From: a virus | Virus genome (UHGV): UHGV-0204464 | Direction: 5' to 3' (one strand) | Length of the DNA stretch: 42,624 bases | Shown here: in pieces, positions 7,452 through 29,890 of the stretch | How the letters are laid out: each line of letters begins with the position of its first letter | Numbering within the stretch: position 1 is the first letter of the stretch | Translations under genes and position numbers: made by a program | The notes under the pieces: generated by a model | Seen by the model: the letters and a program-made list of their open reading frames with translations, nothing else | What the model was told of the DNA's origin: nothing | The model's database searches: none

Positions 7452-7452
7452 G

Positions 7453-8346: not shown

Positions 8347-8350
8347 CTCA

Positions 8351-8371: not shown

Positions 8372-8385
8372 ATTGTGAGGTAAAT

Positions 8386-8762: not shown

Positions 8763-8825
8763 AGCCCCAACTGCGGGAACAGTCAGGGCTTCGGTATCGT
8801 AAAACCACGCATAGGAATTAACGAC

Positions 8826-9749
8826 ATGACGAGTGTAGCAATTGCAGAACATACAATCAACGTTCCATTCCACGGAACAAATCTCTTTTTGGTCAGCATT
8901 AACAATGAACCTTACGTTCCTATGAAACCCGTTGTAGAAGGCATGGGTATGGTTTGGGCTGCTCAATTTGTTAAATTAAAACAGAGATTTGTCAAAGGTA
9001 TTTCGGAAATCGAAATACCTTCTGCTGGCGGTAAACAGTTAATGATATGCCTTGCCTTTCGTAAGTTTGCGGCTTGGCTTTCAAGCATTCAGCCAAACAA
9101 AGTCCGCCCTGAAATCCGCGACAAGGTAATCCAGTATCAGGAAGAGTGTGACGATGTGCTCTACGAGTACTGGACTAAAGGCCATGTGGTTAATCCACGC
9201 AAAGCTAAAAAGGCGTTGCCGGGGAAAATCACTACTGAACAGCAGGAAGCCATTAAACAACTCGTCATGAGTCGCGGTCAGTCTCTGCCAAAAGAAAAAC
9301 AGGCTAAGGCGATGATCACCATGTGGTCGTCACTGAAATCCCATTTTGGATGTTCGTACAAAGAAATCAGTGAGGAGCAGTTTACAGAAGCACTGTCACT
9401 TGCAGCTCGAGTTCCACTTGAAGGTGAGTTCATTGGCAAACAAGAAGAGTTACCAGCGCCAAAACTGGATATTAACTTCCCGATTTCATGGTTTGCTGAA
9501 AATGCACCTTACGCCATTATCAGGCAGCAATGCGGTGATACTGTTGCTCTTGACCGCAGCGCACTCGTTGAATGCAGTCCGGCGTATAAACTAATCAATA
9601 TTCTGACAAAAGCGGGGTATGACGTTTCAGCAGTAAGAGCTGAACTAAAAGCACTTCGCCATTTAATGGCTGAGCAAAGCTGGGCACTTAAAGAGATAGC
9701 TTCATTCGCAGCGATACGTGATAGAGCGTGCCACTCAATTAAACTTTAA
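8826..9749 (+). CDS. ant: Antirepressor Ant
   Basis: 307 aa; N-terminal AntA/KilA-N-like segment; position after mnt/arc; AGGA RBS. Confidence 0.8.
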   Translation: MTSVAIAEHTINVPFHGTNLFLVSINNEPYVPMKPVVEGMGMVWAAQFVKLKQRFVKGISEIEIPSAGGKQLMICLAFRKFAAWLSSIQPNKVRPEIRDKVIQYQEECDDVLYEYWTKGHVVNPRKAKKALPGKITTEQQEAIKQLVMSRGQSLPKEKQAKAMITMWSSLKSHFGCSYKEISEEQFTEALSLAARVPLEGEFIGKQEELPAPKLDINFPISWFAENAPYAIIRQQCGDTVALDRSALVECSPAYKLINILTKAGYDVSAVRAELKALRHLMAEQSWALKEIASFAAIRDRACHSIKL

Positions 9750-9790
9750 CTACCTGCACGAAAAGTGTAGGTCAATAACCAACGCAACGA

Positions 9791-9813
9791 CCCAGCTTCG
9801 GCTGGGTTTTTTT
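9791..9813 (+). terminator. Rho-independent terminator after ant
   Basis: CCCAGC-TTCG-GCTGGG hairpin followed by TTTTTTT. Confidence 0.7.
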
Positions 9814-9871
9814 ATGCCCAAAATTCACCGTAGCCATGCTGCGGCGATTCCTTGTGTCTGGAGCAAATTAA

Positions 9872-12817: not shown

Positions 12818-12962
12818 ATGTTTCGTTGGCGTCAAAAATATGAACTGCTCACATAAAGAAGTAAGTACATTGGCAAAAAACATTGACGTCAACGAAATTA
12901 AATATAAAACATCATGCAGACATATTACCAATATTAATATAAGGTAATAAAAATATAATTTA

Positions 12963-12990
12963 CAAAAAAGGCCCGTTGGAAGCGACGGGC
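12963..12990 (-). terminator. Candidate minus-strand rho-independent terminator
   Basis: GCCCGT..ACGGGC hairpin (12971-12990) with a T-run on the minus strand (plus AAAAAAG 12964-12970). Confidence 0.3.
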
Positions 12991-13244
12991 ATTAACCGCG
13001 GTAATGGATAAATTATTAATGTTTTTAGATTGTGAACGATATCATATTGTGCGGAAGTAGTGAAGTAACCATGTAAAATGATTGTTTCATAGCCTATGAG
13101 ACACACAAGGCTTTGTGCTCTTCGATAGTTGTTAAGGCGGATCACTCTACCTTCTCATCAATCCAGTCCGCCCCCACTGCATCATTTCTCTGCGCTTATC
13201 GAGATACTGAGCATGGTTGTAAATTCAACTAACCCAGTTCGTTG

Positions 13245-13290
13245 ACAAAAAATTAGCGCAAGAGGACAAAAAATCACCTTGCGCTAATGC
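13245..13290 (-). promoter_or_regulatory. sib/tI-like hairpin downstream of int
   Basis: TTGACAAAAAATTAGCGCAAG..CTTGCGCTAATGC long inverted repeat matching the lambda sib/tI region. Confidence 0.6.
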
Positions 13291-13530
13291 TCTGCCTCAG
13301 GTCACTAATACTATCTAAGTAGTTGATTCATAGTGACTGGATATGTTGTGTTTTGTAGTATTATGCAGTCTATTATTTAGACTAAATCCTTCATAACATA
13401 TTGATATTTACAGTGTTTTCTGTTTCTCGTTCAGCTTTTTTATACTAAGTTGGCATTATAAAAAAGCATTGCTTATCAATTTGTTGTAACGAACAGGTCA
13501 CTATCAGTCAAAATAAAATCATTATTTGAT
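13275..13530. other. attP (lambda type) with arm-type Int sites; core at 13434-13448
   Basis: Core GCTTTTTTATACTAA at 13434-13448; arm-type CAGGTCACTAT-like repeats in both arms; adjacent to int. Confidence 0.8.
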
Positions 13531-14592
13531 TTCAATTTTGTCCCACTCCCTGCCTCTGTCATCACGATACTGTGATGCCATGGTGTCCGACTTATGCCCG
13601 AGAAGATGTTGAGCAAACTTATCGCTTATCTGCTTCTCATAGAGTCTTGCAGACAAACTGCGCAACTCGTGAAAGGTAGGCGGATCCCCTTCGAAGGAAA
13701 GACCTGATGCTTTTCGTGCGCGCATAAAATACCTTGATACTGTGCCGGATGAAAGCGGTTCACGACGAGTAGATGCAATTATGGTTTCTCCGCCAAGAAT
13801 CTCTTTGCATTTATCAAGTGTTTCCTTCATTGATATCCCGAGAGCATCAACATGCAATGTTGTAGGGATGGCAATTTTTACGCCTGTTTTGCTTTGCTCG
13901 ACATAAAGATATCCATCTACGATATCAGACCACTTCATTTCGCATAAATCCCCAACTCGCTGCCCGGTAACAACAGCCAGTTCCATTGCAAGTCTGAGCC
14001 AACATGGTGATGATTCTGCTGCTTGATAAATTTTCAGGTATTCGTCAGCCGTAAGTCTTGATCTCCTTACCTCTGATTTTGCTGCGCGAGTGGCAGCGAC
14101 CGGGTTTGTTGTTATATGGCCTTCAGCTATTGCCTCTCGGAATGCATCGCTCAGTGTTGATCTGATTAACTTGGCTGACGCCGCCTTGCCCTCGTCTATG
14201 TATCCATTGAGCATTGCTGCAATTTCTTTTGTGGTGATGTCTTCAAGTGGAGCATCAGGCAGGCCCCTCCTTATTGCTTTAATTTTGCTCATGTAATTTA
14301 TGAGTGTCTTCTGCTTGATTCCTCTGCTGGCGAGGATTTTTTCGTAGCGATCAAGCCATGAATGTAACGTAACAGAATTATCACTGTTGATTCTCGCTGT
14401 CAGAGGCTTGTGTTTGTGTCCTGAAAATAACTCAATGTTGGCCTGTATAGCTTCAGTGATTGCTATCCTCCTGTCTCGGCCTAATCCAAACTCTTTACCC
14501 GTCCTTGGGTCCCTGTAGCAGTAATATCCATTGTTTCTTATATAAAGGTTAGGGGGTAAATCCCGGCGCTCATGACTTCGCCTTCTTCCCAT
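13522..14592 (-). CDS. int: Integrase (tyrosine recombinase), essentially lambda Int
   Basis: 356 aa; MGRRRSHERRDLPPNLYIRNNGYYCYRDPRTGKEFGLGRDRR... matches lambda Int along its length. Confidence 0.95.
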   Translation of the reverse strand: MGRRRSHERRDLPPNLYIRNNGYYCYRDPRTGKEFGLGRDRRIAITEAIQANIELFSGHKHKPLTARINSDNSVTLHSWLDRYEKILASRGIKQKTLINYMSKIKAIRRGLPDAPLEDITTKEIAAMLNGYIDEGKAASAKLIRSTLSDAFREAIAEGHITTNPVAATRAAKSEVRRSRLTADEYLKIYQAAESSPCWLRLAMELAVVTGQRVGDLCEMKWSDIVDGYLYVEQSKTGVKIAIPTTLHVDALGISMKETLDKCKEILGGETIIASTRREPLSSGTVSRYFMRARKASGLSFEGDPPTFHELRSLSARLYEKQISDKFAQHLLGHKSDTMASQYRDDRGREWDKIEIK

Positions 14593-14788
14593 TTCTGATC
14601 CTCTTCAAAAGGCTACCTGTTACTGGTCGATTTAAGTCAACCTTTACCGCTGATTCGTGGAACAGATACTCTCTTCCATCCTTAACCGGAGGAGGGAATA
14701 TCCTGCATTCGCGCACCCATCGACGAACTGTTTCAAGGCTTCTTGGGCGTCGCTGGCGTGCGTTCCACTCCTGAAGTGTCAAGTACAT
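14570..14788 (-). CDS. xis: Excisionase Xis
   Basis: MYLTLQEWNARQRRPRSLETVRRWVRECRIFPPPVKDGREYLF... (72 aa) matches lambda Xis; overlaps int start; track ORF extends upstream. Confidence 0.9.
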   Translation of the reverse strand: MYLTLQEWNARQRRPRSLETVRRWVRECRIFPPPVKDGREYLFHESAVKVDLNRPVTGSLLKRIRNGKKAKS

Positions 14789-14904
14789 CGCAAAGTCTCC
14801 GCAATTACACGCAAGAAAAGCCGCATTGATGCGGCAATGGTAGGTCTGGATATCATTGAGCAATGAACAGGCCTCATCGAGTGTGAGGCGGTGTTATTTC
14901 ATGG

Positions 14905-15249
14905 TTAGTCCTTGCGTAGCTCGCTGATTCTTCTGTAAGTCTCTGGTGCTTTGTTTCCGTGTATCTTCATTTCAAACTTCAACAGAGCAACGAGAGAATC
15001 CCATTCGTTGAGGATGCCTTTGAATGCCGGAACGCGCTTTGCAACCTTGTCGAATGAATCTCTGATTTCTGGAATCTGCTCAACAAGTGCAACGCATCGC
15101 CGGAAGTCTGCTGCGTCATGTGGAGCGCCGAAGTGATGACCATAGATATTTTTTTTCAGTCCACATGCGATTGAGGCAAGAGTTGCGCTACTGATGCCGA
15201 CATCGCCAGTTGATTGCCATTTCAAAACCTTCATAGCCAAATCTGACAT
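14905..15249 (-). CDS. Hypothetical early-left protein
   Basis: ORF with GGAGA RBS before the ATG at 15249 (MSDLAMKVLKW...). Confidence 0.5.
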   Translation of the reverse strand: MSDLAMKVLKWQSTGDVGISSATLASIACGLKKNIYGHHFGAPHDAADFRRCVALVEQIPEIRDSFDKVAKRVPAFKGILNEWDSLVALLKFEMKIHGNKAPETYRRISELRKD

Positions 15250-15275
15250 TTCTTGTCTCCAATAAAAAACCGCCA

Positions 15276-15443
15276 TCAGGCGTCTTGGTGTTCTTTCAGT
15301 TCTTCAATTCGAATATTGGTTACGTCTGCATGTGCTATCTGCGCCCATATCATCCAGTGGTTATAGCAGTCGTTGATGTCCTCTGCTTCGATAACCCTGT
15401 CGAATGGCTCTCCATTCCATTCACCTGTGACTCGGAAGTGCAT
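15276..15443 (-). CDS. Hypothetical small protein (55 aa)
   Basis: Hand-found ORF MHFRVTGEWNGEPF... with GGAG RBS 7 nt upstream; not in the supplied track. Confidence 0.3.
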   Translation of the reverse strand: MHFRVTGEWNGEPFDRVIEAEDINDCYNHWMIWAQIAHADVTNIRIEELKEHQDA

Positions 15444-15543
15444 TTATCATCTCCATAAAACAAAACTCGCCGTAGCGAGTTCAGATAAAAGAAATCCCCG
15501 CGAGTGCGAGGATTGTTATTCACCTTTGACGGCAAGTTGCAGG

Positions 15544-16167
15544 TTAGCCACGGTTAACCTCCTGCGGCGGTTCTGGTAGCGGCATCCAGAACAAGGCGTT
15601 CCCTAACCACGATAAAGTGCCGTCGCTCAACTCCACGTATTCCCCTTGTACCTGTCCTGCCATATACTCGCCGTGCTTTGAATAAATTAAAATCCAATCA
15701 TCTTGAGCGGGCATTCGCTCACTACAGCTTATCCAACCATCCGGAGTTACCGGATAGTTGCCGGGTTCTTTAATGTGCAAGCGAGGCTCACCATCTTTTG
15801 GTTCAGGCCACTGGCGCTCCATGTTGATCTTCAATTTATCTTCCATAGCAGCGGTAATTTCAGCATCGCTGATGCCAGCACGGCGCTGTGCATCCCACAA
15901 CAGGAAATGCATATCAGCCCACTCGCTGAGATCGTCTGGTTCGGCTGCGGCTTCCAGAGCCTCTTTTGAGAGGTGTTTCAGTGGACCAATGGGGCCAACG
16001 CAGCCAAATGTGGAGTCAGACCATTTGGCATGCTCGTGGCGAATCAGTTCGCGTTCCAGTGATGCCAGTGCAATTCGTGCCAGTTCCATTTGTTCGCCAC
16101 GAGTAAGCCCGTTTTCAAGCGGATTTTTAATGAACAATTCAATACGTTCTTTGGTAATAGTGGTCAT
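15544..16167 (-). CDS. Hypothetical protein, common lambdoid early-region family (possibly DUF550/DUF551-type)
   Basis: 207-aa ORF with AGGA RBS; family assignment from memory only. Confidence 0.55.
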   Translation of the reverse strand: MTTITKERIELFIKNPLENGLTRGEQMELARIALASLERELIRHEHAKWSDSTFGCVGPIGPLKHLSKEALEAAAEPDDLSEWADMHFLLWDAQRRAGISDAEITAAMEDKLKINMERQWPEPKDGEPRLHIKEPGNYPVTPDGWISCSERMPAQDDWILIYSKHGEYMAGQVQGEYVELSDGTLSWLGNALFWMPLPEPPQEVNRG

Positions 16168-16177
16168 TTGTTAGTCC

Positions 16178-16933
16178 TTAAACTGCTAGTTGCAATTGCA
16201 TTTCAAAGCGGTCGCGTTGTTCACAATACGCAAGAGAACCAGGGCTATTGTGTGCCTCAATCCGTTCTACCATTAATGCTGCTCGTGTCTCTTTACTTGC
16301 AGGTGCATAAGCCCCAGACCAGGCTTTATCAATACCGATGTTTCGAGCGACGTTCGTACTATCTGCGCTGGCTAAGGGTAATTTTGTGAATATCTGCGGA
16401 TTTAACATGCGCAATCCATGTAGTTTCGCAACCGGCTGACCATACTCATCAACAATGTGACGAATCAGGTCTTTCATTCTGGCTACCGCAAGAGTTGGGC
16501 GCTTTACGTCATAGTCGCCACAACTACCGATAGCCACTCGCGGAAACTCATTGCACAAATGAATAAATCGCTCGTCACTTTCATTCATGTGCCACACTGG
16601 AACGCCAGCTAGTTTTCCGTGAGGCCACTCATTCAGAAGCGCATCATTTTCTTCCTCTCCGCCATCAATAACATCAGGGATAATGGCAAAATCGAATCCT
16701 GGGTGATTCTTCCAGCGAGCAACAAACTCGTAGTAATCGCTCCAGTCGATTTTGTTTTTGCCAGCTGCTTTCCAGGCGGTGAATGCACCGTTGTCCAGCG
16801 CGAACGACTGACAGTATTCAGCCGCGAGATTGATCTGGCCTGAATGCGCAAAACTGATAAACGCATGTCGCCCTTTCCATGCTCTCATGGCGCACGTATC
16901 AGGAGTAATAGGCCCACCGTGATAGTGAATCAT
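16178..16933 (-). CDS. Hypothetical protein; possible tRNA-guanine-transglycosylase-like (DpdA-like) fold
   Basis: 251 aa from ATG at 16933 (coupled to upstream stop); LDNGAF segment resembles the TGT DSGGFQ motif; track ORF starts at an upstream TTG. Confidence 0.5.
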   Translation of the reverse strand: MIHYHGGPITPDTCAMRAWKGRHAFISFAHSGQINLAAEYCQSFALDNGAFTAWKAAGKNKIDWSDYYEFVARWKNHPGFDFAIIPDVIDGGEEENDALLNEWPHGKLAGVPVWHMNESDERFIHLCNEFPRVAIGSCGDYDVKRPTLAVARMKDLIRHIVDEYGQPVAKLHGLRMLNPQIFTKLPLASADSTNVARNIGIDKAWSGAYAPASKETRAALMVERIEAHNSPGSLAYCEQRDRFEMQLQLAV

Positions 16934-16934
16934 C

Positions 16935-17669
16935 TCACTCTCCTTTGATGCCAATGTTTACAGCCTGGCAAGCCTCTTTGAGCACCCAGTCAACAGCGTC
17001 TTTCCATGCTCCTGTTTCGACTGGCGGGTTCTCACGTTTTACCTGCTCATAAAAACGCACCGCTTTAATCAGTCCTTCAGGTACTACTGGCGATGGCTGT
17101 TTAGCTTCTAAATCAGCAATTCTGTCAACTACGGCATCTACTGCATCTGAAAAACCGAACCAGTTACTCCACTCAGGCCTATCCCCGGTTGCTGCAAAAT
17201 ACATATCAGCTAAAGCAGACTCAGCATGGTCACGCTCATTAATGAGTTGCTCTTCGCTTTTCTCCAGTTCAGCAATGCGCTTCTCTGCGGCCTCTGCCCT
17301 GCATTGTTCCCGTTGGAACATTTTGTGGGTGCGGTCGAGCGCCTCAAGTCTAGCTGCTGATGTTTTCTCTTCTGCTTCCAGCTCAACGCGCAGCTTCCCT
17401 ACCGTTAGCGCAATTTCCTCGTTCTCCTGGTCGCGGGATTTGATGTATTGCTGGTTCCTTTCCCGTTCATCCAGTAGTGCCAAAGCAATCTTTGGATTAA
17501 AGGCAGCAATAAATTCAGCGTTGTTTTTCAGAACGTGTTGCGCAATGGCCTGACTACTTAGTCGGACCTCATAACCACGTGCGCCACGGTGTGGTTTATA
17601 TGAGTCCCAGTCTCCCCACGTTGCTTTCTCTGCTTTTTCACGCAGTCCCTGATAGTCAATCTTGCTCAC
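16935..17669 (-). CDS. Ea22-like coiled-coil protein
   Basis: 244 aa with long central heptad/coiled-coil region (ELEAEEKTSAARLEALD...). Confidence 0.55.
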   Translation of the reverse strand: MSKIDYQGLREKAEKATWGDWDSYKPHRGARGYEVRLSSQAIAQHVLKNNAEFIAAFNPKIALALLDERERNQQYIKSRDQENEEIALTVGKLRVELEAEEKTSAARLEALDRTHKMFQREQCRAEAAEKRIAELEKSEEQLINERDHAESALADMYFAATGDRPEWSNWFGFSDAVDAVVDRIADLEAKQPSPVVPEGLIKAVRFYEQVKRENPPVETGAWKDAVDWVLKEACQAVNIGIKGE

Positions 17670-17973
17670 TGGTTGACTCCTTTGCTGGGCTTTCTAACTT
17701 CTGAGTGGTTGTATCAAACTCAAACAACTTAACCACGTCATCAAACAGGACATAATCGCCATCAGAATCTTCAGTCATGTCAGCGCCACAATCCTGACCG
17801 AACGAGTCACAACCATCCATATCAAGCTCGTATCGCTTGAGTTTTGCGATATTTGATAAATTCAGCGCCAGTACAGCAAGGTCATAAACCTCGTCAGCGG
17901 TATACCCGGCACCATGCCCATACATTTCAATGCGGGATATGATTTCTTCTACACGTTGTTTTGTGATCGTCAT
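17656..17973 (-). CDS. Hypothetical acidic protein
   Basis: 105-aa ORF in tightly packed minus-strand operon. Confidence 0.45.
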   Translation of the reverse strand: MTITKQRVEEIISRIEMYGHGAGYTADEVYDLAVLALNLSNIAKLKRYELDMDGCDSFGQDCGADMTEDSDGDYVLFDDVVKLFEFDTTTQKLESPAKESTSEQD

Positions 17974-18431
17974 TTTTGCTCACCTCCCTGTTCTTCCAGA
18001 AAAATACGCATAGCCTCAAGCATCTCTTCGGTGTCATACGGTGATAACTTGTCACGCAGGATGTGTTCAATGCTGTTAATGAACTTGCGGATTGCTTTGC
18101 GTTCAATTTCAGCCAGGAAAGCATCGGTGGCTGGGGTGTCTGATTGCAGAGACTTTGCGCGATAGTCATTCCACCCTCTTGCATACATGGGATTAACTTG
18201 CACTCCATCTTTTACGCAATATGCCTGCCCTCCACGGTTGATAACCTTGATTTCATCCATAGCGCCAGACTTCAGCCCCGCATTCTCCGCAGCCAGCGCC
18301 GCGCACTTGGCCTCCGCTTCAGCAAATTTACGCACCAGATATTCAGCGTTTGTTTCGTTAACCTTTAAATCGCTTGGGATGCATTTACCTTTCAGGAATC
18401 CATCCATCTCAATTAGTGACATTTGTTTCAT
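17970..18431 (-). CDS. Hypothetical protein
   Basis: 153-aa ORF; start overlaps upstream stop. Confidence 0.5.
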
Positions 18432-18592
18432 TTCTTCCCACTCCGCAACATCGCATTCAGATATTTGTTTTGATTCACTGACGGAAAAGAATTTCTCTTT
18501 AGCAATTCCTCTCTCGATGGCATTGGCTTTACGCGTTGGCGAATAATCATTTCTGCCGGAAGAATGCCTGGGTTGTATGCAAGTCCTCTCAT
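18428..18592 (-). CDS. Hypothetical small protein
   Basis: In-frame ATG at 18592 ([12 protein letters not shown]...) just after the stop of the 18603-18899 gene; the longer track ORF would overlap that gene. Confidence 0.3.
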
Positions 18593-18602
18593 GGTAAATT
18601 CC

Positions 18603-18899
18603 TCAGTCATTACTGATAGCGCCATAGCGTGATCGATAATTACGCAGCCGCGGGTCGATATATTCAGGGAAGTGGGTATATGTGGCTTTGCGGAATGGTC
18701 GGATTGATGTTTCGTTTGTTCGGTCCTTCTCATCTTTTAACGCGAGTTGTATATCGCGTCGGTACATCCGTTCTGCTTTTGTTTCTGGTGGCAGATCGAT
18801 AAACGTGTCGAAAATGTTTTTGATATTTTCCAGCACCTCCGCCTTGGAGCTACCGGAGCAATTGCGCGGGTCATCCGCACCATACAGAGGCGCTGGCAT
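18603..18899 (-). CDS. Hypothetical protein
   Basis: 98-aa ORF. Confidence 0.45.
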
Positions 18900-18922
18900 A
18901 ATGGGAGCCTTATTTTCAGTAA

Positions 18923-19510
18923 TCAGAAAGCAGGGTAATCGTTCTGGCTGTAACCATAATCATCTGCATGATTCTGGCTTACGTTTTTAGAGCGATTGTC
19001 TTTATCTTTGAGATTGGCAACCATGTTGGCGATAGTTTCTGGTTGCTTGCCTTCTACCTTTTCTTTAAGGGTTTGACCTGTTTGTGCAATAAACGGGATG
19101 CGTATTTCCATCTGGTAGCTGTCTGCGCCAGTCTTTTTGTTTGTGGTTAATACTTTCTGGAGCACTAACCCGATTTTCTTTCCATGAAATTCAGGTGCAA
19201 CAAATTTACTGGCGGAAACCATATGCTGCGTTAATTGTCCAATCCCGGCACACCCCATCATGGCGTGAACGACATTTGCGCCAAATTTGTTTTCCGTTCC
19301 GTCATTTTTCTGAACACAGACGCTAAGATATTGGATTTTACGTCCGTCGTCGGATTCTCCAGAAAACTCAATAAATTTGGCTCCTTTTTCTGATTGCTTT
19401 AGTTCTGCTTCAGTAATGGTAATGATATGGGCTCCAGTTTCGTTAATAAAACCACCTTGCCCTGCGGTCAGTGCTGCTTCTTCGTTATAAGTAAAAATCA
19501 CGTTGCTCAT
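18923..19510 (-). CDS. SSB-like partner of Sak4-type recombinase (DUF669-like)
   Basis: 195 aa; immediately downstream of and overlapping the Walker-A ATPase gene; acidic C-terminal tail DDYGYSQNDYPAF. Confidence 0.5.
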   Translation of the reverse strand: MSNVIFTYNEEAALTAGQGGFINETGAHIITITEAELKQSEKGAKFIEFSGESDDGRKIQYLSVCVQKNDGTENKFGANVVHAMMGCAGIGQLTQHMVSASKFVAPEFHGKKIGLVLQKVLTTNKKTGADSYQMEIRIPFIAQTGQTLKEKVEGKQPETIANMVANLKDKDNRSKNVSQNHADDYGYSQNDYPAF

Positions 19511-20187
19511 GCGGCGTTTTCCTTAATTTGATGAACATTATTGATGCCGTAGTAATCACAAACAGTGGCATCGACGAAAGAGAGATCGTTATCAATCTCA
19601 TTGGAATCAAACATTCCCATTGGGGATTTGACAGTGTCTGCACCGTTGTTTTTCGTGGTGAAAAAGAACTGGTCATCGCGGGTAAGAGTGCGAAGAACTA
19701 TAGTAAACATGCCTTCGACAGTGATTTTCTCGTCCAGCATTTTGCCGATAGTTTTCATTTTCACGCGCCCCATAGGGGTTTCTTCGGTATGTGCAAGAAA
19801 ATAGACTCTCAGGTCATCAGGTGCATCCTGTGCAGCCTTAATCACCTCCCATGCGTGGCGGCCTATCTCAGTAAATTTATCAAACGATTTTTCTTCTGAG
19901 CGGCGCATAAACTCATTGCTCATCACATACTGGAAGTCATCAACAATAACGATTCTTTTTCCGTATTCGTGAGCACGCTTAATTACAGCAACTATTACGT
20001 CCCATTTGTCAGTGGTAACTACGGTTCCTTTTTTTGCTCTGGCATCCCATGCAAGCCAGTCTTTTGATTTAAATGGTAGCGGCTTGCCTATTGGTTTTAT
20101 AAGTATTGCTTCCTCTGGATTGATATTTCTCATGCTGGTTGATTTTCCGGTGCCAGATTCACCGAGTATTAATGTCGCAGTTCCCAT
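19507..20187 (-). CDS. Sak4-like RecA-fold ATPase (single-strand annealing recombination)
   Basis: 226 aa; Walker A GESGTGKST near N-terminus; occupies the exo/bet slot of a lambda-like PL operon. Confidence 0.6.
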   Translation of the reverse strand: MGTATLILGESGTGKSTSMRNINPEEAILIKPIGKPLPFKSKDWLAWDARAKKGTVVTTDKWDVIVAVIKRAHEYGKRIVIVDDFQYVMSNEFMRRSEEKSFDKFTEIGRHAWEVIKAAQDAPDDLRVYFLAHTEETPMGRVKMKTIGKMLDEKITVEGMFTIVLRTLTRDDQFFFTTKNNGADTVKSPMGMFDSNEIDNDLSFVDATVCDYYGINNVHQIKENAA

Positions 20188-20195
20188 AATTTGCC

Positions 20196-20396
20196 TCAGA
20201 ATGGTAATTCGGATGGGCAGGAAAGAAATTCGCGCTCATTCATGCGCTCTCTTTGCGCCTGCCATAAACAAAGTTGTTTCTTTGATTTATCTCCCGCTTT
20301 ACGCCAGTAACGAGCCTCAGCAATGTGATATTCTCTTTTTAATCGACTTAACTCTGGAGTTTTCGCCAGTTCTACCGGAATCATTTTGACCTCCAT
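20196..20396 (-). CDS. Hypothetical small protein (gam position)
   Basis: 66-aa ORF. Confidence 0.4.
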   Translation of the reverse strand: MEVKMIPVELAKTPELSRLKREYHIAEARYWRKAGDKSKKQLCLWQAQRERMNEREFLSCPSELPF

Positions 20397-20494
20397 TTTC
20401 TGTAGGCTTCTACGGCTTCACGAAACATCTTTTCATCGCCAATAAAAGTGGCGATAGTGAATTTAGTCTGGATAGCCATAAGTGTTTTATCCAT
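20381..20494 (-). CDS. Kil-like small protein candidate
   Basis: 37 aa, MDKTLMAIQTKFTIATFIGDEKMFREAV...; resembles my recollection of lambda Kil; start overlaps cIII stop. Confidence 0.4.
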   Translation of the reverse strand: MDKTLMAIQTKFTIATFIGDEKMFREAVEAYRKWRSK

Positions 20495-20627
20495 TTTTGG
20501 GAACTCCTGGCTGATTAAGTATGTCGATAAGGCGTTTCCATCCATCACGTAATTTACGTGTGATTCGTTCAAGTAAAGATTCGGAAGGGCAGCCAGCAAC
20601 AGGCCACCCTGCAATGGCATATTGCAT
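20487..20627 (-). CDS. cIII: CIII (FtsH inhibitor), apparently shortened at C-terminus
   Basis: MQYAIAGWPVAGCPSESLLERITRKLRDGWKRLIDILNQPGVPKNG then stop; matches lambda CIII, which I recall as 54 aa. Confidence 0.6.
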   Translation of the reverse strand: MQYAIAGWPVAGCPSESLLERITRKLRDGWKRLIDILNQPGVPKNG

Positions 20628-20699
20628 GGTGTGCTCCTTATTTATACATAACGAAAAACGCCTCGAGTGAAGCGTTATTGGTATGCGGTAACGCCGCGC

Positions 20700-21068
20700 T
20701 CAGGCGGCCTTGATAGTCATATCATCTGAATCAAATATTCCTGATGTATCGATATCGGTAATTCTTATTCCTTCACTACCATCCATTGGAGGCCATCCTT
20801 CCTGACCATTTCCATCATTCCAGTCGAACTCACACACAACACCATATGCATTTAAGTCGCTTGAAATTGCTATAAGCAGAGCATGTTGCGCCAGCATGAT
20901 TAATACAGCATTTAATACAGAGCCGTGTTTATTGAGTCGGTATTCAGAGTCTGACCAGAAATTATTAATCTGGTGAAGTTTTTCCTCTGTCATTACGTCA
21001 TGGTCAATTTCAATTTCTATTGATGCTTTCCAGTCGTAATCAATGATGTATTTTTTGATGTTTGACAT
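20700..21068 (-). CDS. Hypothetical protein (Ea10-position)
   Basis: 122-aa ORF, acidic C-terminal half. Confidence 0.5.
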   Translation of the reverse strand: MSNIKKYIIDYDWKASIEIEIDHDVMTEEKLHQINNFWSDSEYRLNKHGSVLNAVLIMLAQHALLIAISSDLNAYGVVCEFDWNDGNGQEGWPPMDGSEGIRITDIDTSGIFDSDDMTIKAA

Positions 21069-21250
21069 CTATTCATATCCTCATAGATAAAAAATCGCCC
21101 TCACACTGGAGGGCAAAGAAGATTTCCAATAATCAGAACAAGTCGGCTCCTGTTTAGTTACGAGCGACATTGCTCCGTGTATTCACTCGTTGGAATGAAT
21201 ACACAGTGCAGTGTTTATTCTGTTATTTATGCCAAAAATAAAGGCCACTA

Positions 21251-21451
21251 TCAGGCAGCTTTGTTGTTCTGTTTACCAAGTTCTCTGGCAATCATTGCCG
21301 TCGTTCGTATTGCCCATTTATCGACATATTTCCCATCTTCCATTACAGGAAACATTTCTTCAGGCTTAACCATGCATTCCGATTGCAGCTTGCATCCATT
21401 GCATCGTTTGAATTGTCCACACCATTGATTTGTATCAATAGTCGTAGTCAT
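21251..21451 (-). CDS. Small Cys-containing protein, possibly Ral (restriction alleviation)
   Basis: 66 aa, MTTTIDTNQWCGQFKRCNGCKLQSEC...; length and position fit lambda Ral from memory. Confidence 0.45.
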   Translation of the reverse strand: MTTTIDTNQWCGQFKRCNGCKLQSECMVKPEEMFPVMEDGKYVDKWAIRTTAMIARELGKQNNKAA

Positions 21452-21664
21452 ACGGATAGTCCTGGTATTGTTCCATCACATCTTGAGGATGCTCTTCGAA
21501 CTCTTCAAATTCTTCTTCCATATATCACCTTAAATAGTGGATTGCGGTAGTAAAGATTGTGCCTGTCTTTTAACCACATCAGGCTCGGTGGTTCTCGTGT
21601 ACCCCTACAACGAGAAATCGGATAAACTCTATTCACCCCTACAGAGAGCAAAAGAGAAACGCCG

Positions 21665-22246
21665 ATGAACAACTCATGGTGGCAGGAACTAATGCATTTT
21701 TTCCTGCAAGGAATGACACTTAAACAGTTGATTCATATGCTAATCATCCTGATCATATTGATTATTGTTATGCCGGTAAGCGTAAAAGAATGGATAAACC
21801 TGCATAATCCAGAAATCCTTCCTCATTACTGGATGTATTACATCCTGTTGTTTTGCGTTAGCTATGTGCTTAACGGCGTTGTTAATTCCGCTTATCACGC
21901 TGTGACTGAAAGAATTGAGGTATTCGCTGCTCAGAAGCGCAAATCTAAAGAAGAAAAATATGTGCAAGATTTGTTTGATTCGTTAACTCTTGGAGAAAGA
22001 GCGTATTTGGCATTCGCTGTAGCCGCTAATAACCAGCTACAAACGGAAAAGGGCGCTCATGAATCAATTTCATTGCTCAAAAAAGGACTCCTCGTTCGAA
22101 GGCCTCCTGCTGTTGGATATCCTGATACCGACCGTTTCGTTATCCCTGAAAGCTATAGACATGAGTGCTACATTAGGTTTGCCGGGAAGGCAGACAGCCT
22201 TATGGATGAACTTATCGCTCAGGATAAGCATGGCAAAAACAAGTAA
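21665..22246 (+). CDS. sieB: Superinfection exclusion protein B (SieB)-like membrane protein
   Basis: 193 aa with N-terminal hydrophobic segments (LIHMLIILIILIIVMPV; YWMYYILLFCVSYVL); lambda/P22 SieB is about 192 aa. Confidence 0.6.
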   Translation: MNNSWWQELMHFFLQGMTLKQLIHMLIILIILIIVMPVSVKEWINLHNPEILPHYWMYYILLFCVSYVLNGVVNSAYHAVTERIEVFAAQKRKSKEEKYVQDLFDSLTLGERAYLAFAVAANNQLQTEKGAHESISLLKKGLLVRRPPAVGYPDTDRFVIPESYRHECYIRFAGKADSLMDELIAQDKHGKNK

Positions 22247-22262
22247 TTAGCAAATGAATTTA

Positions 22263-22535
22263 TCATCTCGCCGTCAGTTGTTTTGATTTCCGGTAGCCTG
22301 CCGCGTAAAGAGCTACGTTCGGAAGACAAGTTGAACCTTCATATTTTCTGGTCAACGTTGTCAGAGTTATCACTTCTGCTCTCATTGCTGGTTTGAGCTT
22401 GCATTGCAAGACCACTCGTGAAGGGGTTGGCCTGTGTAGCTTGTCGGAGCTGATCGCCTCCTGACTTTGCAGATTTGCGCGACGAGCTCTACGGCGAGAA
22501 GCTGCGGTGCCTTTAAATTCTGTTTTTCTGGACAT
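22263..22535 (-). CDS. N-like transcription antiterminator (P22 gp24 family)
   Basis: Arg-rich motif TAASRRRARRANLQSQ near N-terminus; C-terminus LPNVALYAAGYRKSKQLTAR resembles P22 gp24; internal ATG at 22535 chosen over the longer track ORF. Confidence 0.7.
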   Translation of the reverse strand: MSRKTEFKGTAASRRRARRANLQSQEAISSDKLHRPTPSRVVLQCKLKPAMRAEVITLTTLTRKYEGSTCLPNVALYAAGYRKSKQLTAR

Positions 22536-22631
22536 GGATTCCTCCCGAATAAACTTTGGCGATGCAATCTCGAAGCTCCTCCTGAGACGGTTGCTTCGGC
22601 ATTGCATCCCACAGCTTATGTGGTTGGGTGA

Positions 22632-22682
22632 TCTGGCTTTTCAGCCACGTAGTCGAGAGTCGACGTTGTTTAAAGAGCCTGC
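22632..22682 (-). promoter_or_regulatory. nutL (boxA plus boxB)
   Basis: On the minus strand: boxA-like GGCTCTTTA and boxB hairpin GGC-TGAAAA-GCC; boxB matches the nutR copy. Confidence 0.5.
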
Positions 22683-22719
22683 CAGTCTGTTCCATTTGGC
22701 TTCCAGCGTCCTGCTGACG

Positions 22720-22760
22720 GTTAAATAGTACGATATGTACTTTACAAGATCAATACAATT
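22720..22760 (-). promoter_or_regulatory. Candidate PL promoter with OL operator palindrome
   Basis: Minus strand TTGATC-17-TACTAT; palindrome AGTACGATATGTACT (22727-22741) overlaps the -10. Confidence 0.35.
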
Positions 22761-22940
22761 TGTTGTAAGTTGGCGTGGTTTTTTATAACGCTTTGTATTT
22801 AATAGTGTTGTTTTTTAGCGTGGATGTATTGCCTCGGCGATGTAAGGAGAGATCAGAATTGCGTGGTTTAGTGGGTTGCATCTATTTATTTTTCAATAAA
22901 TATAATTGGTTATGTGTTTTTAGGTGGGCGAACGTGAGGC

Positions 22941-22967
22941 AAAGAAAACCCGGCGCTGAGGCCGGGT
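22941..22967 (-). terminator. Rho-independent terminator ending the cI operon
   Basis: Minus strand ACCCGGC-CTCAGC-GCCGGGT hairpin followed by TTTTCTTT; directly after the 250-aa gene stop. Confidence 0.65.
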
Positions 22968-22971
22968 TGTA

Positions 22972-23724
22972 TTATGCTGCAAGTCTCTTAACCCAAGTCT
23001 CTCTTTTGGAGAATGGTAGAACTTGGCTTGATTCATGGAAGAGTAAGGAGAGTTGTTGCATTTGATCACCAATTGCTTCGCTGTCTATAACAACAAATCT
23101 GTTGTTATACTCCTCACTTGAAGCTTTAAGATCAATTAGTTTCCCAAGCAATGAGTAAGCACTATTCCAGCTTCCTCCGTGTTTCACGCTTGATGTAAAA
23201 ACGTATTTAGGTATGTCGGTTTTTATTGTTACAGGGACGGTAATTTGATGTCCACTCAAGCCATATACGTTTTCACGAAGAGAAAGTGCGTCTCTAAGCT
23301 CTGTGTGATATAGATAATCAATAACCATACTTTCAAACTTTTCAGCTTGAACTGGCTGATACCAGTCTAACGACAAAGTTGATGCGAGTATACCAGCTCT
23401 AATTATGTTCGATGTAATCGCACCGACATCCTTTTCTGTTGCCCAAGCAATGATTTCTCCTCGAGCATTGAGTTCTGCGCCTTCTTTAAGCAGTAATTGT
23501 CGTATCTCATCAAGTCGTTTTTTGGTAAGCGAGATCCCTCTTGCCTCCATATTCATTAAGGCATCGCATCTGTCACTAACTAAATACCTACCATTGACTT
23601 CACGGATAAAGGCACCGACATGCTCTCCATCATCACAGTAAGTGAATGGACTGATAATTCTCAAGGTCTTGCCTATTGGATGGCATTCGAAACCTAGTTG
23701 TGAGATCACTGTTGAGCACATCAT
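22972..23724 (-). CDS. Hypothetical protein B of cI-linked cassette (unknown function)
   Basis: 250-aa ORF; ATG overlaps stop of upstream gene (ATGA); no TM segment and no motif I recognise; AT-rich. Confidence 0.6.
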   Translation of the reverse strand: MMCSTVISQLGFECHPIGKTLRIISPFTYCDDGEHVGAFIREVNGRYLVSDRCDALMNMEARGISLTKKRLDEIRQLLLKEGAELNARGEIIAWATEKDVGAITSNIIRAGILASTLSLDWYQPVQAEKFESMVIDYLYHTELRDALSLRENVYGLSGHQITVPVTIKTDIPKYVFTSSVKHGGSWNSAYSLLGKLIDLKASSEEYNNRFVVIDSEAIGDQMQQLSLLFHESSQVLPFSKRETWVKRLAA

Positions 23725-24278
23725 ATTCCAAACCCCATTTGCCCCGACTCATCTTCAAGCGGTAAAGGTATTCTCCCAGAGTAAGTTATGTTCAGATGTT
23801 TACAGAAGTAATTCCAATACCCTACCAGGTCATCTGGGTTTATGTCATCTTCGATTGGAAACGCTATTCTATCACTATAGTATCCAGCTTCTTCATAGTA
23901 TACATGGTAGTGAGCACCGTAAATGATATCTTGGTACTTCGGATGATCGACCTTGTAACTATTCGTGTGTTTGTCAAAGTGATAGGTATCTACCGCGAAA
24001 ACCCTCTTGTTATGATAGAAAGCAATAATATTTATTTTAGGGTAAGAAATCGGGTCATCAGGTTCTGAATCCTGATCTGGTTTCCATTTCAGTTCAAACT
24101 TTAGCCCTTGTATAGGTATACAATCCTCATCCAAGGGGATGATATGGGCTTGTAGCCACATATCAGAGCGACTTGGTTTCTGTTTCCATTTAACGCCAGA
24201 AAAGTTAACTATTTTTTTACAATAAAGTACTTTATCAACTTCTACTTGGCTTGGCTGATAATCATCTATTTTTGCCAA
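23721..24278 (-). CDS. Hypothetical protein A of cI-linked cassette (unknown function)
   Basis: 185-aa ORF beginning 39 nt after the cI stop; first in-frame codon is TTG with GGCGG upstream (next ATG is 39 codons in); Tyr/His/acidic-rich; AT-rich. Confidence 0.55.
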   Translation of the reverse strand: MAKIDDYQPSQVEVDKVLYCKKIVNFSGVKWKQKPSRSDMWLQAHIIPLDEDCIPIQGLKFELKWKPDQDSEPDDPISYPKINIIAFYHNKRVFAVDTYHFDKHTNSYKVDHPKYQDIIYGAHYHVYYEEAGYYSDRIAFPIEDDINPDDLVGYWNYFCKHLNITYSGRIPLPLEDESGQMGFGI

Positions 24279-24317
24279 TGTTTACCGCCCTGTAAATTGT
24301 AGATAAAAGTGGTTTCA

Positions 24318-24977
24318 TCACCCAAACGTCTCTTCAGGCCATTGGCTGGCGATAACTTTCCCCACAACGGAACAACTCTCATTGCATGGGATCATTGGGT
24401 ATTGTGGGTTTAGTGGCTGTAGAAACACCTGACCGCTATCCCTGATCAGTTTCTTGAAGGTAAATTCATCACCACCAAGTCTGGCTATGCAGAAATCGCC
24501 GGGCTCAACAGCTTGCTCAGGGTCAACCAGAATTAACATCCCGTCAGGAAAGCTGGGTTTGGAACCTGTTGGTGCGGTCATTGAGTTACCTTCAACCTCA
24601 AGCCAGAATGCAGAGTCACTGGCTTTTTTGGTTGTGCTTACCAATCTCTCCGCATCGCCTTTGGTAAAGGTTCTGAGTTCTGGAGAGAACATCCCAGCCT
24701 GAACATGAGAAAAAACAGGGTACTCATATTGTTTTTTAACTGGGGCCGATGAGTATTCGCCAACAGGTGAAAATGTCCCGTCGTGGTTGAATGATATGTT
24801 ATCAATACCAAGGTATTTAAACACCACACCAATATCACTAAGAGATGGATGACGAGATCCGCGCAACCAGTGTCCAATCCCACCCTGCGTCATACCTAGC
24901 TCTTCGGCTAACTTCTCTTGAGTTATGCCGAGCTCTTTCATTCTGGATCTAGCCAGTTCATACCATTTCATTTTCAT
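24318..24977 (-). CDS. cI: CI-type prophage repressor (HTH plus LexA-like S24 peptidase domain)
   Basis: N-terminal HTH ([20 protein letters not shown]), C-terminal autocleavage-type domain ([17 protein letters not shown]); divergent from cro; start taken at MKMKWY. Confidence 0.8.
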
Positions 24978-25088
24978 GTCCTTATTATTACGCTCTGTAC
25001 TGGAACCATCCATGCACAATGTGTATTTTTACTTGTATTCGCAAAGTACATATTGTATTTTTTTATTCGTGTTTACTATGGAGGGCAT
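24978..25088. promoter_or_regulatory. OR/PR/PRM region between cI and cro
   Basis: Divergent intergenic region with AGTACATATTGTAT and TACTT..AAGTA partial palindromes related to the OL palindrome; TTGTAT-17-TATTTT promoter candidate; GGAGG RBS before cro. Confidence 0.4.
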
Positions 25089-25304
25089 ATGAGCAACCTA
25101 CGAAAATATCGAGAGTCACTGAATATCTCTCAAACAACACTTGCTAAGGCAGTTGGATGCACACAGGGAGCTATCGGACATTGGGAATCTGGTCGTCGCT
25201 TCCCAGACCTTAAAACATGCCGTGCTCTTGTTGCGTGCCTAAACAAGTTAGGCGCAAAAGTCAGTCTTGATGACGTGTTCCCGCCGGAACACAAAGCCGC
25301 TTAA
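25089..25304 (+). CDS. cro: Cro-like HTH regulator
   Basis: 71 aa from internal ATG with GGAGGG RBS; HTH QTTLAKAVGCTQGAIGHWESG; the track ORF has an implausible upstream extension. Confidence 0.7.
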   Translation: MSNLRKYRESLNISQTTLAKAVGCTQGAIGHWESGRRFPDLKTCRALVACLNKLGAKVSLDDVFPPEHKAA

Positions 25305-25315
25305 TAAGCGGATCC

Positions 25316-25360
25316 GCTCTTTGTAACAACGGACATTCGTCCTACGTCGCTGAAAAGCGA
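25316..25360 (+). promoter_or_regulatory. nutR (boxA CGCTCTTTG plus boxB hairpin)
   Basis: boxA-like CGCTCTTTG at 25316-25324; boxB TCGC-TGAAAA-GCGA at 25347-25360; preceded by AGCGGATCCGCT palindrome. Confidence 0.5.
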
Positions 25361-25445
25361 GTTCCAAGATATCTGACCAACTAAGGCCATATGCGTTTCC
25401 ACGCATACCTTTCAACTAACTATTCACTATTGGAAATCTTAAGAA

Positions 25446-25742
25446 ATGGAAAGAACAAGTTACAGCAAACTATCACAGCGTGACGTTGATCGCGCAGAAA
25501 CAGATTTACTTATCAATCTGTCAGCTATTACCCAGCGCGGTCTGGCAAAGATGATTGGCTGTCATGAATCGAAGATAAGCAGAACGGACTGGAGATTTAT
25601 TGCTTCGGTCTTGTGTGCTTTCGGAATGGCATCAGACATCAGTCCGATTAGCAGGGCTTTTAAGTATGCGCTTGATGGACTCACCAATAAAAAACGCCCG
25701 GCGGCAACCGAGCGTTCTGAACAAATCCAGATGGAATTCTGA
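25446..25742 (+). CDS. cII: CII transcriptional activator
   Basis: 98 aa; C-terminus LTNKKRPAATERSEQIQMEF matches lambda CII; N-terminal half divergent. Confidence 0.85.
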   Translation: MERTSYSKLSQRDVDRAETDLLINLSAITQRGLAKMIGCHESKISRTDWRFIASVLCAFGMASDISPISRAFKYALDGLTNKKRPAATERSEQIQMEF

Positions 25743-27659: not shown

Positions 27660-27732
27660 CCATCTACATCACTGAGCTAATAACAGGCCTGCAGGTAATC
27701 GCAGGCCTTTTTATTTGGGGGAGAGGGAAGTC

Positions 27733-28173
27733 ATGAAAAAACTAACCTTTGAAATTCGATCTCCGGCACATCAGCAAAACGCTATTCACGCAGTACAGCA
27801 AATCCTTCCAGACCCAACCAAACCAATCGTAGTAACCATTCAGGAACGCAACCGCAGCTTAGACCAAAACAGGAAGCTATGGGCCTGCTTAGGTGACGTC
27901 TCTCGTCAGGTTGAATGGCATGGTCGCTGGCTGGATGCAGAAAGCTGGAAGTGTGTGTTTACCGCAGCATTAAAGCAGCAGGATGTTGTTCCTAACCTTG
28001 CCGGGAATGGCTTTGTGGTAATAGGCCAGTCAACCAGCAGGATGCGTGTAAGCGAATTTGCGGAGCTATTAGAGCTTATACAGGCATTCGGTACAGAGCG
28101 TGGCGTTAAGTGGTCAGACGAAGCGCGACTGGCTCTCGAATGGAAAGCGCGATGGGGAGATCGGGCTGCATGA
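27733..28173 (+). CDS. ninB: NinB (Orf) recombination mediator
   Basis: MKKLTFEIRSPAHQQNAIHAVQQILPDPTKPIVVTIQERNRSLDQNRKLWA... matches lambda NinB; start at internal ATG. Confidence 0.9.
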   Translation: MKKLTFEIRSPAHQQNAIHAVQQILPDPTKPIVVTIQERNRSLDQNRKLWACLGDVSRQVEWHGRWLDAESWKCVFTAALKQQDVVPNLAGNGFVVIGQSTSRMRVSEFAELLELIQAFGTERGVKWSDEARLALEWKARWGDRAA

Positions 28174-28697
28174 CTATCAAATCAAATACGCCAGCACACG
28201 ACAAGGACTGCTGGCAAACGCCGCTTTGGCTTTTTGATGCACTGGATATTGAGTTTGGATTCTGGCTGGATTCGGCAGCGAGCGACAAAAATGCTCTGTG
28301 CGCTCACTGGCTAACTGAGGACGACGACGCGCTCAATTCTGAGTGGGTAAGCCACGGTGCAATCTGGAATAACCCACCGTACAGCAATATCAGGCCGTGG
28401 GTGGAAAAAGCCGCTGAGCAGTGTATACAACAGCGACAGACGGTAGTGATGCTTGTGCCAGAGGATATGTCTGTCGGATGGTTCAGCAAGGCTCTGGAGA
28501 GTGTTGACGAAGTTCGCATCATCACTGATGGACGGATTAATTTTATCGAACCATCGACGGGGCTGGAGAAGAAGGGAAACAGCAAAGGTTCCATACTGCT
28601 GATTTGGCGACCGTTCATCAGTCCCCGGCGAATGTTTACTACCGTATCCAAAGCGGCATTGATGGCGATCGGGCAGGGCGTCAGGAGGGCGGAATGA
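28170..28697 (+). CDS. DNA N6-adenine methyltransferase (phage Dam-like, orphan)
   Basis: 175 aa from ATG overlapping ninB stop; NPPY motif (WNNPPYS); no adjacent restriction endonuclease gene. Confidence 0.7.
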
Positions 28698-29043: not shown

Positions 29044-29248
29044 TTACCTGAAATGGTATCTCTGCCACCGCTGGCTAATTAAGTTTGCTGTAAAAGACTG
29101 GATGACAGCGGATGCCAACAAACTTAAGCAAAGAAAGGACTATTACTACGCCAGAATGAAGGAAAACTACTGCTCAATTCGCACTCGCATATTTATTAAA
29201 AAAGACCTTCAGTCAATTCTTCAATTGCGAGGGAAGGTAAATGGCTAA
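29036..29248 (+). CDS. Hypothetical nin-region protein
   Basis: 70-aa ORF with ATGA overlap to upstream gene. Confidence 0.45.
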   Translation: MSDYLKWYLCHRWLIKFAVKDWMTADANKLKQRKDYYYARMKENYCSIRTRIFIKKDLQSILQLRGKVNG

Positions 29249-29531
29249 CCTACGCAAAGAAGCGCGCGGCAGAGAATGCCAGGTACGTATTTACGGCGTA
29301 TGCAATGGAAATCCTGAAACTACAGTTCTGGCACATTACCGGATGGCTGGAATTTGTGGAACGGGGATGAAGCCTGACGACCTGATCGGTGCATGGGCTT
29401 GTAGTGACTGCCACGCGGAGATCGACCGACGCACAAGGATTCTCGACAACAAAGACGCCAGACTTTACCACCTCGAAGGCGTGATCAGGACGCAGGCGAT
29501 ACTGCTGAAGGAGGGGAAGATTAAGTCATGA
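29241..29531 (+). CDS. YbcO-like (DUF1364-type) Cys-rich protein
   Basis: 96 aa; ARGRECQVRIYGVCNGNPETTVLAHYR and CSDCHAEIDRR motifs resemble E. coli DLP12 YbcO from memory. Confidence 0.55.
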   Translation: MANLRKEARGRECQVRIYGVCNGNPETTVLAHYRMAGICGTGMKPDDLIGAWACSDCHAEIDRRTRILDNKDARLYHLEGVIRTQAILLKEGKIKS

Positions 29532-29890
29532 ACGAATATCAGTTTGTGCTTCCATACCCGCCGTCGGTGAACACCTACTGGCGAAGACGGGGAAGCCAAT
29601 ACTACATCAGCGATAAAGGAGAGAAATACCGAAAAGACGTTCAGCAAATCATCCGCCAACTCAAGTTAGACATTTTCACTAAATCACGACTCCGCATCAA
29701 AGTCATCGCAGACGTTCCAGACTCCCGCCGCCGCGACCTCGACAACATCCTGAAAGGTTTACTCGACTCCCTTATCCACGCCGGATTTGCGGAAGACGAC
29801 GAGCAATTCGATGACATTCGCGTAATTCGTGGCGTGAAAGTACCAGGCGGAAGGCTTGGAATAAAAATCACCGAACTGGAGAGCGTATGA
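29528..29890 (+). CDS. rusA: Holliday junction resolvase RusA
   Basis: 120 aa; LPYPPSVN..., DSRRRDLDNILKGLLD, GGRLGIKITEL motifs match RusA. Confidence 0.85.
   Translation: MNEYQFVLPYPPSVNTYWRRRGSQYYISDKGEKYRKDVQQIIRQLKLDIFTKSRLRIKVIADVPDSRRRDLDNILKGLLDSLIHAGFAEDDEQFDDIRVIRGVKVPGGRLGIKITELESV

Follow-up and report, generated by a model that had tools for sequence, protein, structure and literature searches.

Which recombination system does a phage carry when its early left operon looks like that of lambda on both sides, but not in the slot that lambda fills with gam, bet and exo? The question arises from UHGV-0204464, a viral genome of 42,624 nucleotides (hereafter the window, that is, the whole stretch of DNA that was analysed). 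A sequence-only reading had found in this slot a Walker-A ATPase of RecA fold and an overlapping SSB-like gene, and had described the arrangement as a module swap. Here, we conclude with high confidence that the locus is an HK620-type Rec module of a P22-like temperate coliphage, consisting of hkaM, sak4, ssb and abc2 and running leftward from PL under N antitermination (Table 1).

Table 1. Positions of the module genes and of associated features in the window
Feature	Position	Strand	Description
abc2	18603..18899	-	98 aa; putative P22-type anti-RecBCD (RecC-binding) protein, diverged allele
ssb (hkaK homologue)	18923..19510	-	195 aa; 'SSB-2'/DUF669-type, predicted OB-fold ssDNA-binding protein, disordered acidic C-terminal tail ending NDYPAF
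sak4 (hkaL homologue)	19507..20187	-	226 aa; putative RecA-core-only, ATP-dependent single-strand annealing protein
hkaM	20196..20384	-	62-aa orphan between kil and sak4; conserved C-terminal psi-P-F
kil and cIII	20381..20627	-	Upstream frame common to lambda, HK620 and the window phage
DUF2737 gene (hkaI homologue)	18428..18592	-	Downstream frame of the module; Pfam DUF2737, E=1.8e-31
Terminator-like hairpin	20657-20676		HK620 tL2B equivalent; terminator scan
Terminator-like hairpin	21095..21116	-	HK620 tL2A equivalent; terminator scan
N antiterminator gene	22263..22607		
pL/OL1-nutL-like segment	22670..22744	-	86.7% identical to HK620 locus L001 2387-2461
ninB/orf recombination mediator	27715..28173	+	phrog_72, E=3.7e-59; early-right operon
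RusA-like Holliday-junction resolvase	29528..29890	+	phrog_34, E=3e-53; early-right operon

The ATPase and its SSB partner

The ATPase carries a Walker A motif (GESGTGKS, residues 9-16) and a Walker B motif (IVIVDD, residues 79-84). Both are kept throughout an alignment of 38 homologues, in which G9, S11, G12, G14, K15, D83 and D84 are invariant. The predicted structure has the RecA/Rad51 core fold and lacks both terminal domains (N and C) of RecA, and a PHROGs profile search matched the protein over its full length to phrog_2872, 'Sak4-like ssDNA annealing protein' (E=3.9e-108). The RecA-fold ATPase of the sequence-only reading is therefore confirmed, as is the Sak4 family that it had proposed for a profile search. 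The protein differs from HK620 HkaL by a single substitution (225/226 identical, 99.6%). When phage genomes were searched by tblastn, HK620 hkaL was recovered at 99.6% and phage JEP4 at 100% identity, and many Stx1a- and Stx2a-converting phages were found to carry Sak4 at 99.1%. The 90%-identity cluster of the protein comprises 1036 member sequences.

Searching PDB sequences returned nothing at E<=1 for Sak4 and only noise for the SSB (E 0.26 or worse), which is why fold comparison was used instead. NCBIfam gave nothing meaningful for Sak4, SSB, HkaM or Abc2. PADLOC matched Sak4 at the level of the P-loop only, and neither SSB nor HkaM had any match there, indicating that the module is not a defence system.

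The Sak4 protein of HK620 needs ATP both to bind ssDNA and to anneal complementary strands (Hutinet 2018, PMC5928155). By analogy with this protein, one residue apart, Sak4 of the window would bind ssDNA in an ATP-dependent manner, anneal it and support recombineering. That the ATPase might be a replication, helicase-loader or packaging ATPase instead of a recombinase is barely conceivable, as the existing evidence already argues otherwise. A second alternative is that Sak4 and SSB chiefly carry out RecA-like strand exchange or mediate recombination instead of annealing strands. The RecA-core fold and the resemblance of Sak4 to RAD51 paralogues would fit such a role, and sak4 plus ssb reportedly promote post-conjugational recombination at a low level, 20-fold over background (PMC5928155). 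However, the HK620 proteins perform no strand exchange in vitro and neither stimulate nor otherwise affect RecA, and HK620 recombineering is RecA-independent (Hutinet 2018, PMC5928155), so that we regard a strand-exchange role as quite unlikely. Archaeal RadB and the RAD51 paralogues (RAD51C/D, XRCC2/3) are accessory to a strand-exchange protein, whereas Sak4 itself anneals together with SSB and does not act on RecA. The staphylococcal Sak4 (ORF016, PDB 8RC5, target of SaPI2 Stl; PMC11846896) and the lactococcal and Pseudomonas Sak4 proteins are just 13% identical to that of the window. The staphylococcal type belongs to Gram-positive hosts, and the HK620 type has no known interaction with a satellite repressor.

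The cognate ssb lies directly downstream of sak4, the stop codon of one gene and the start codon of the other sharing ATGA at 19510-19507. Such pairing is common, as about 80% of sak4 genes adjoin a cognate ssb (Hutinet 2018, PMC5928155). The SSB matches phrog_743, 'single strand DNA binding protein' (E=3.1e-66), and is identical to HK620 HkaK (SSB_HK620) at 191/195 positions (97.9%). Given the matches to phrog_2872 and phrog_743, neither sak4 nor ssb is a chance ORF. An OB-fold ssDNA-binding core is predicted for the SSB, followed by a C-terminal end that reads ...ADDYGYSQNDYPAF and in which residues 177-195, the last 19 or so, have pLDDT <50 and are predicted to be disordered. The overlapping, acidic-tailed SSB-like gene of the earlier reading thus stands. 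For its suggested membership of DUF669, the evidence is divided. Hmmscan against current Pfam-A gave no match for the SSB at E<=0.01 or even at E<=10, and none of the 120 SSB homologues listed has an entry in the precomputed Pfam column. On the other hand, many homologues bear the NCBI title 'DUF669 domain-containing protein', and HkaK has been equated with DUF669 (Hutinet 2018, PMC5928155). No similarity was found between the SSB and P22 Abc1, in agreement with the same study.

The SSB tail deserves separate consideration. SSB_HK620 is a genuine SSB that raises Sak4 recombineering from 15-fold to ~210-fold over background, and its last six residues (NDYPPF) are needed both for this stimulation and for Sak4 binding to SSB-coated ssDNA (Hutinet 2018, PMC5928155). 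The corresponding residues in the window (18923..18940) are NDYPAF. The change, P194A, falls inside a hexapeptide essential in HK620 and counts against an HK620-type mechanism. Family members differ naturally in the penultimate residue, most often P but also A, Q or D, while conservation of the terminal F is at least 90%. The most populous database cluster of the SSB at 90% identity (P0001, 1407 members) ends in PPF; the AF ending is rare and is present elsewhere in the family. Judging from this variation, P194A is probably tolerated.

Control of RecBCD and the small gene hkaM

The fourth gene of the module was overlooked in the sequence-only reading. Its product matches Pfam PF11043 (E=2.3e-37, residues 1-98 against a 97-position model), phrog_656 (E=9e-47) and P22 Abc2, both as PDB entry 8B1T (E=8.4e-34) and by BLASTP (63% identity, E=5e-44). 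It is less close to HK620 Abc2 (HkaJ) than its neighbours are to their HK620 counterparts, with 66/98 identical residues (67.3%). Compared with HK620 the allele is an intragenic mosaic, in which residues 1-11 match, the last 35 differ at one position, and the divergence is concentrated mainly in residues 12-63. Work cited in a recent survey describes P22 Abc2 as binding RecC and modifying RecBCD activity (PMC12315714). We infer the same for the diverged allele by analogy with P22; an identity of just 63-67% to the studied P22 and HK620 proteins is a point against this mechanism.

A six-frame tblastn search of the whole window found no lambda Exo, Bet or Gam (best E 0.33), and likewise no Gam-like, RecT or Exo protein of phage ArgO145 and no P22 Erf, Abc1 or Arf (best E 0.13 or worse). 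The earlier statement that no Gam homologue is recognizable is thus literally true, but, judged by homology, the RecBCD-control function is nonetheless present in its P22/HK620 form, abc2. The window contains no Chi site; with only about one expected by chance, this count is uninformative.

Another protein of the window, the Ead/Ea22-like coiled-coil product of 16935..17669(-), has a secondary match to phrog_4790, 'host RecBCD nuclease inhibitor' (E=9e-9, residues 81-183), which is one among its 20 PHROG matches. We rejected it as a RecBCD inhibitor, since Pfam reports Ead_Ea22 only and lambda Gam has no tblastn match in this region. The phrog_4790 match is probably a coiled-coil or Ea22-family cross-match.

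The small ORF between kil and sak4 had been taken as a 66-aa frame at 20196-20396. A start at 20384, giving the 62-aa hkaM, is more likely: GGAGG lies 5 nt upstream, and this start overlaps the kil stop in ATGA, as annotated in HK620. Its product is identical to HK620 HkaM at 61/62 positions (98.4%) and matches phrog_1723 (E=3.3e-33), whose label, 'recombinase', is not backed by a tested function in the literature consulted. HkaM has been called an orphan of unknown function, and neither it nor Abc2 is required for oligonucleotide recombineering in HK620 (Hutinet 2018, PMC5928155). It has no similarity to P22 Arf, in agreement with that study, and none in Pfam; a PDB sequence search returned noise only (E 0.26 or worse), and a literature search for 'hkaM' gave unrelated matches only.

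It was suggested in the sequence-only reading that this ORF could inhibit RecBCD and so replace Gam. HkaM is indeed a conserved gene of no known function placed where lambda has gam, directly after kil. However, the module already contains a bona fide anti-RecBCD gene, abc2, so that there is no longer a reason to look for a Gam substitute in the small upstream ORF. HkaM resembles neither Gam nor P22 Arf nor any Pfam or PDB entry, and HK620 sak4 and ssb, with hkaM left out, recombineer as well as the complete module does (PMC5928155). In addition, HkaM co-occurs with abc2 in Erf-type modules too and is therefore not an alternative to it. Taken together, a role as Gam substitute appears highly improbable, and Abc2 is preferred as the protein that controls RecBCD.

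The C-terminus of HkaM offers a different lead. In an alignment of about ten distinct sequences, all full-length homologues, down to ~60% identity, end in [L/I/M]-P-F-COOH, while the four to five residues before this tip vary and carry indels. The tip resembles the SSB tails of E. coli (DDDIPF) and HK620 (NDYPPF), and the gene sits between kil and an annealase, either Sak4 (HK620 and the window) or Erf (phages Huey and ES18). With an SSB-like tip and a fixed position next to the annealase, HkaM could use the same docking pocket. It may then be a mimic of the SSB tail that binds this pocket, either on the phage annealase or on host enzymes of the SSB interactome (ExoI, RecQ, RecO, RecJ or PriA, for example), and so would tune or protect phage recombination intermediates. 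This idea is speculative, and we consider it doubtful. As a separate observation, a database protein of 87 aa (P0249) looks like a natural hkaM::abc2 fusion from which sak4-ssb has been lost, joined at a short motif, LC(L/I)W..A..E, that is common to HkaM and Abc2 of the P22/HK620 type.

Junctions and relatives of the module

The borders of the module were mapped by comparing window 13001-25500 with lambda and HK620 in BLASTN. Lambda matches the window at 13237-14819 (attP/int/xis, 96.7% identity), at 15260-15519 and at 20392-21644 (kil, cIII, ea10 and ral, 97.8%), so that the lambda-like flanks noted earlier are seen on both sides at the DNA level. HK620 matches 18318-20686 with 94.6% identity over 2369 nt, its homology stopping at 18318 within the next gene, the hkaH homologue. 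The lambda boundary at 20392 corresponds to lambda 33228, inside the gam/kil overlap, and a match to phage ev207 (99.7%) begins at the same nucleotide. On these alignments we place the right-hand recombination junction of the module at 20392. Lambda 29362-33227 has no DNA homology in window 13001-25500 except for a short ea22 patch. Relative to lambda, gam-bet-exo and the genes next to them have been cleanly replaced, and in this sense the module swap that had been proposed is real. However, the phage itself is not simply lambda-like. CUS-3, a P22-like, K1-specific podovirus, matches 538-13224 in six pieces that cover about one third of a 25-kb query at 96.4% identity, and by its sequence the whole phage belongs with HK620 among the P22-like phages, as a mosaic of CUS-3 type.

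The order cIII-kil-hkaM-sak4-ssb-abc2-DUF2737 is that of HK620, overlaps included. The frame around the module is also conserved, with 45/46 residues of cIII (97.8%), 36/37 of Kil (97.3%) and 53/54 of the DUF2737 protein (98.1%, compared with HkaI) identical to HK620, and with a Pfam Lambda_Kil match for Kil (E=5.7e-21). Upstream, the HK620 stretch aligned to the pL/OL1-nutL-like segment, L001 2387-2461, overlaps the annotated pL (2378-2413) and nutL (2452-2493), the alignment to the window being partial. This segment is presumed to be the origin of the leftward early transcription that drives the module. Two terminator-like hairpins, both upstream of cIII, were mapped onto annotated HK620 tL2A and tL2B via the BLAST register, and N antitermination would allow transcription to pass through them.

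The closest known system is thus the HK620 Rec module hkaM-hkaL(sak4)-hkaK(ssb)-hkaJ(abc2) (Clark 2001; Lopes 2010; Hutinet 2018, PMC5928155), whose four genes, their order and their overlaps all recur in the window. The window differs from it in its Abc2 allele and SSB tail, and in what surrounds the module: on the downstream side beyond DUF2737, and on the upstream side beyond cIII, the genes derive from other lambdoid sources, ea10, ral, int and xis being those of lambda. Lambda Red (gam-bet-exo) occupies the same PL-operon slot after kil and has the same role, phage homologous recombination with control of RecBCD, but shares no homologous protein with the module. The annealase of lambda is Rad52-like and that of the window a RecA-fold ATPase, which as a Sak4-type system requires a dedicated SSB. 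Moreover, the window lacks a phage exonuclease, and its Abc2 would modify RecBCD where lambda Gam blocks it. P22 arf-erf-abc1-abc2 has the same frame, from kil to abc2-orf56/DUF2737, a homologous Abc2 and no encoded nuclease, but its Erf, Abc1 and Arf have no counterpart in the window, where Sak4 and SSB replace Erf and Abc1.

Parts of the module also occur in other combinations. In phages Huey and ES18, the kil-hkaM/abc2-DUF2737 frame encloses Erf, a bacterial-type SSB and an endonuclease in place of Sak4 and SSB; their HkaM proteins, 98% (Huey) and 66% (ES18) identical to that of the window, precede Erf, SSB, endonuclease and Abc2. An HkaK-type SSB (84% identical) is found in the Stx phage ArgO145 (L007 2601-3188) together with Gam-like, RecT and Exo proteins, and there is no Sak4 within the 5.8-kb stretch around that ssb. 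Both SSB and HkaM are thus promiscuous as to the type of annealase. A 2025 survey of 325 lambdoid phages sorted Rec modules into 13 types, listed HK620 Sak4, 'SSB-2' and Abc2 among the standard components, and described the combinatorial shuffling of Rec-module parts (PMC12315714).

Prevalence was estimated with a 2.3-kb query (window 18400-20700, including DUF2737, kil and cIII) at a cut-off of at least 80% coverage, which retrieved 64 phage records and 180 of 5426 complete E. coli genomes. The best match (99.7%) was E. coli O7:K1 CE10, where a degraded prophage remnant at lambda attB (gal-bio; NC_017646 824649-840320) is interrupted by IS3. This remnant is a relative of the window phage that shares its int/xis and Sak4 module, and retains DNA-transfer and tailspike genes as fragments only. 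Such near-identical copies in degraded prophages, along with a frameshifted ssb in strain MS 21-1, could mean that the module is an inactive relic of a decaying prophage here as well. Against this, all four ORFs are intact and of full length in the window and keep their ribosome-binding sites and coupling. Elsewhere in the window, the int/xis, repressor, N, O, P, NinB, RusA and Q genes are intact and a CUS-3-like late region is present, and we therefore judge a relic very unlikely.

Some other genes of the window are recorded here in their own right. The 258-aa product of 16178..16954(-) matches phrog_887, 'queuine tRNA-ribosyltransferase' (E=2.2e-103), has no Pfam match, and may be a transglycosylase of the DpdA type for 7-deazaguanine DNA modification. 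Its gene is part of the early-left operon and stands immediately upstream of 15544..16167(-), which encodes a dATP/dGTP pyrophosphohydrolase (PF04447, E=1e-41) plus DUF551 protein. Directly downstream of cI, in the slot of lambda rexA/rexB, the ATGA-coupled genes 22972..23724(-) and 23721..24278(-) form a probable prophage-expressed defence or exclusion pair, as suggested by matches of the 250-aa protein to DUF1828 (E=5e-8) and to the PADLOC candidate-defence component PDC-M24B (E=4.7e-10), and by weak matches of the 185-aa protein to PDC-M24A (E=4.8e-4) and DUF6978. In the nin region, a DNA methyltransferase-like ORF at 28110..28697(+) (phrog_111, E=1.7e-87) and an HNH endonuclease-like ORF at 29241..29531(+) (phrog_131, E=4.4e-48) lie between NinB and RusA.

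Proposed course of recombination and its meaning

The gene identities, motifs, folds, order, translational coupling, placement downstream of N and mosaic junctions are read directly from the window, and the activities below are carried over from experiments on HK620 and P22. Abc2 would bind RecC of the host RecBCD enzyme and block its response to Chi. The altered RecBCD would then yield recombinogenic 3' single strands, the resection of ends by RecBCD being extrapolated from P22. We propose that, with RecBCD redirected to make 3' ssDNA, a phage-encoded exonuclease is unnecessary. SSB would coat the ssDNA and expose its C-terminal tail, and ATP-bound Sak4 would dock on the SSB-ssDNA complex via this tail and anneal complementary strands, by single-strand annealing and not by strand exchange. 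NinB/Orf and the RusA-type resolvase from the early-right operon probably assist. The module would thereby support recombination-dependent replication as well as exchange between phages.

As a discovery the module has little significance. It is a standard lambdoid Rec-module type, near-identical to that of HK620 and already known in detail, since HK620 Sak4, SSB and Abc2 have been dissected genetically and biochemically and are common in E. coli prophages. The only possible new lead is HkaM with its SSB-tail-like tip. There is nevertheless some value for annotation. In thousands of E. coli prophages, Stx-converting ones included, RefSeq titles these proteins 'ATP-binding protein' or 'hypothetical protein', so the correct names can be transferred. 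With respect to phage evolution, the exact junction at the gam/kil boundary is a textbook case of modular exchange, and differing cores of annealase and SSB are found within one conserved frame of kil-hkaM and abc2-DUF2737.
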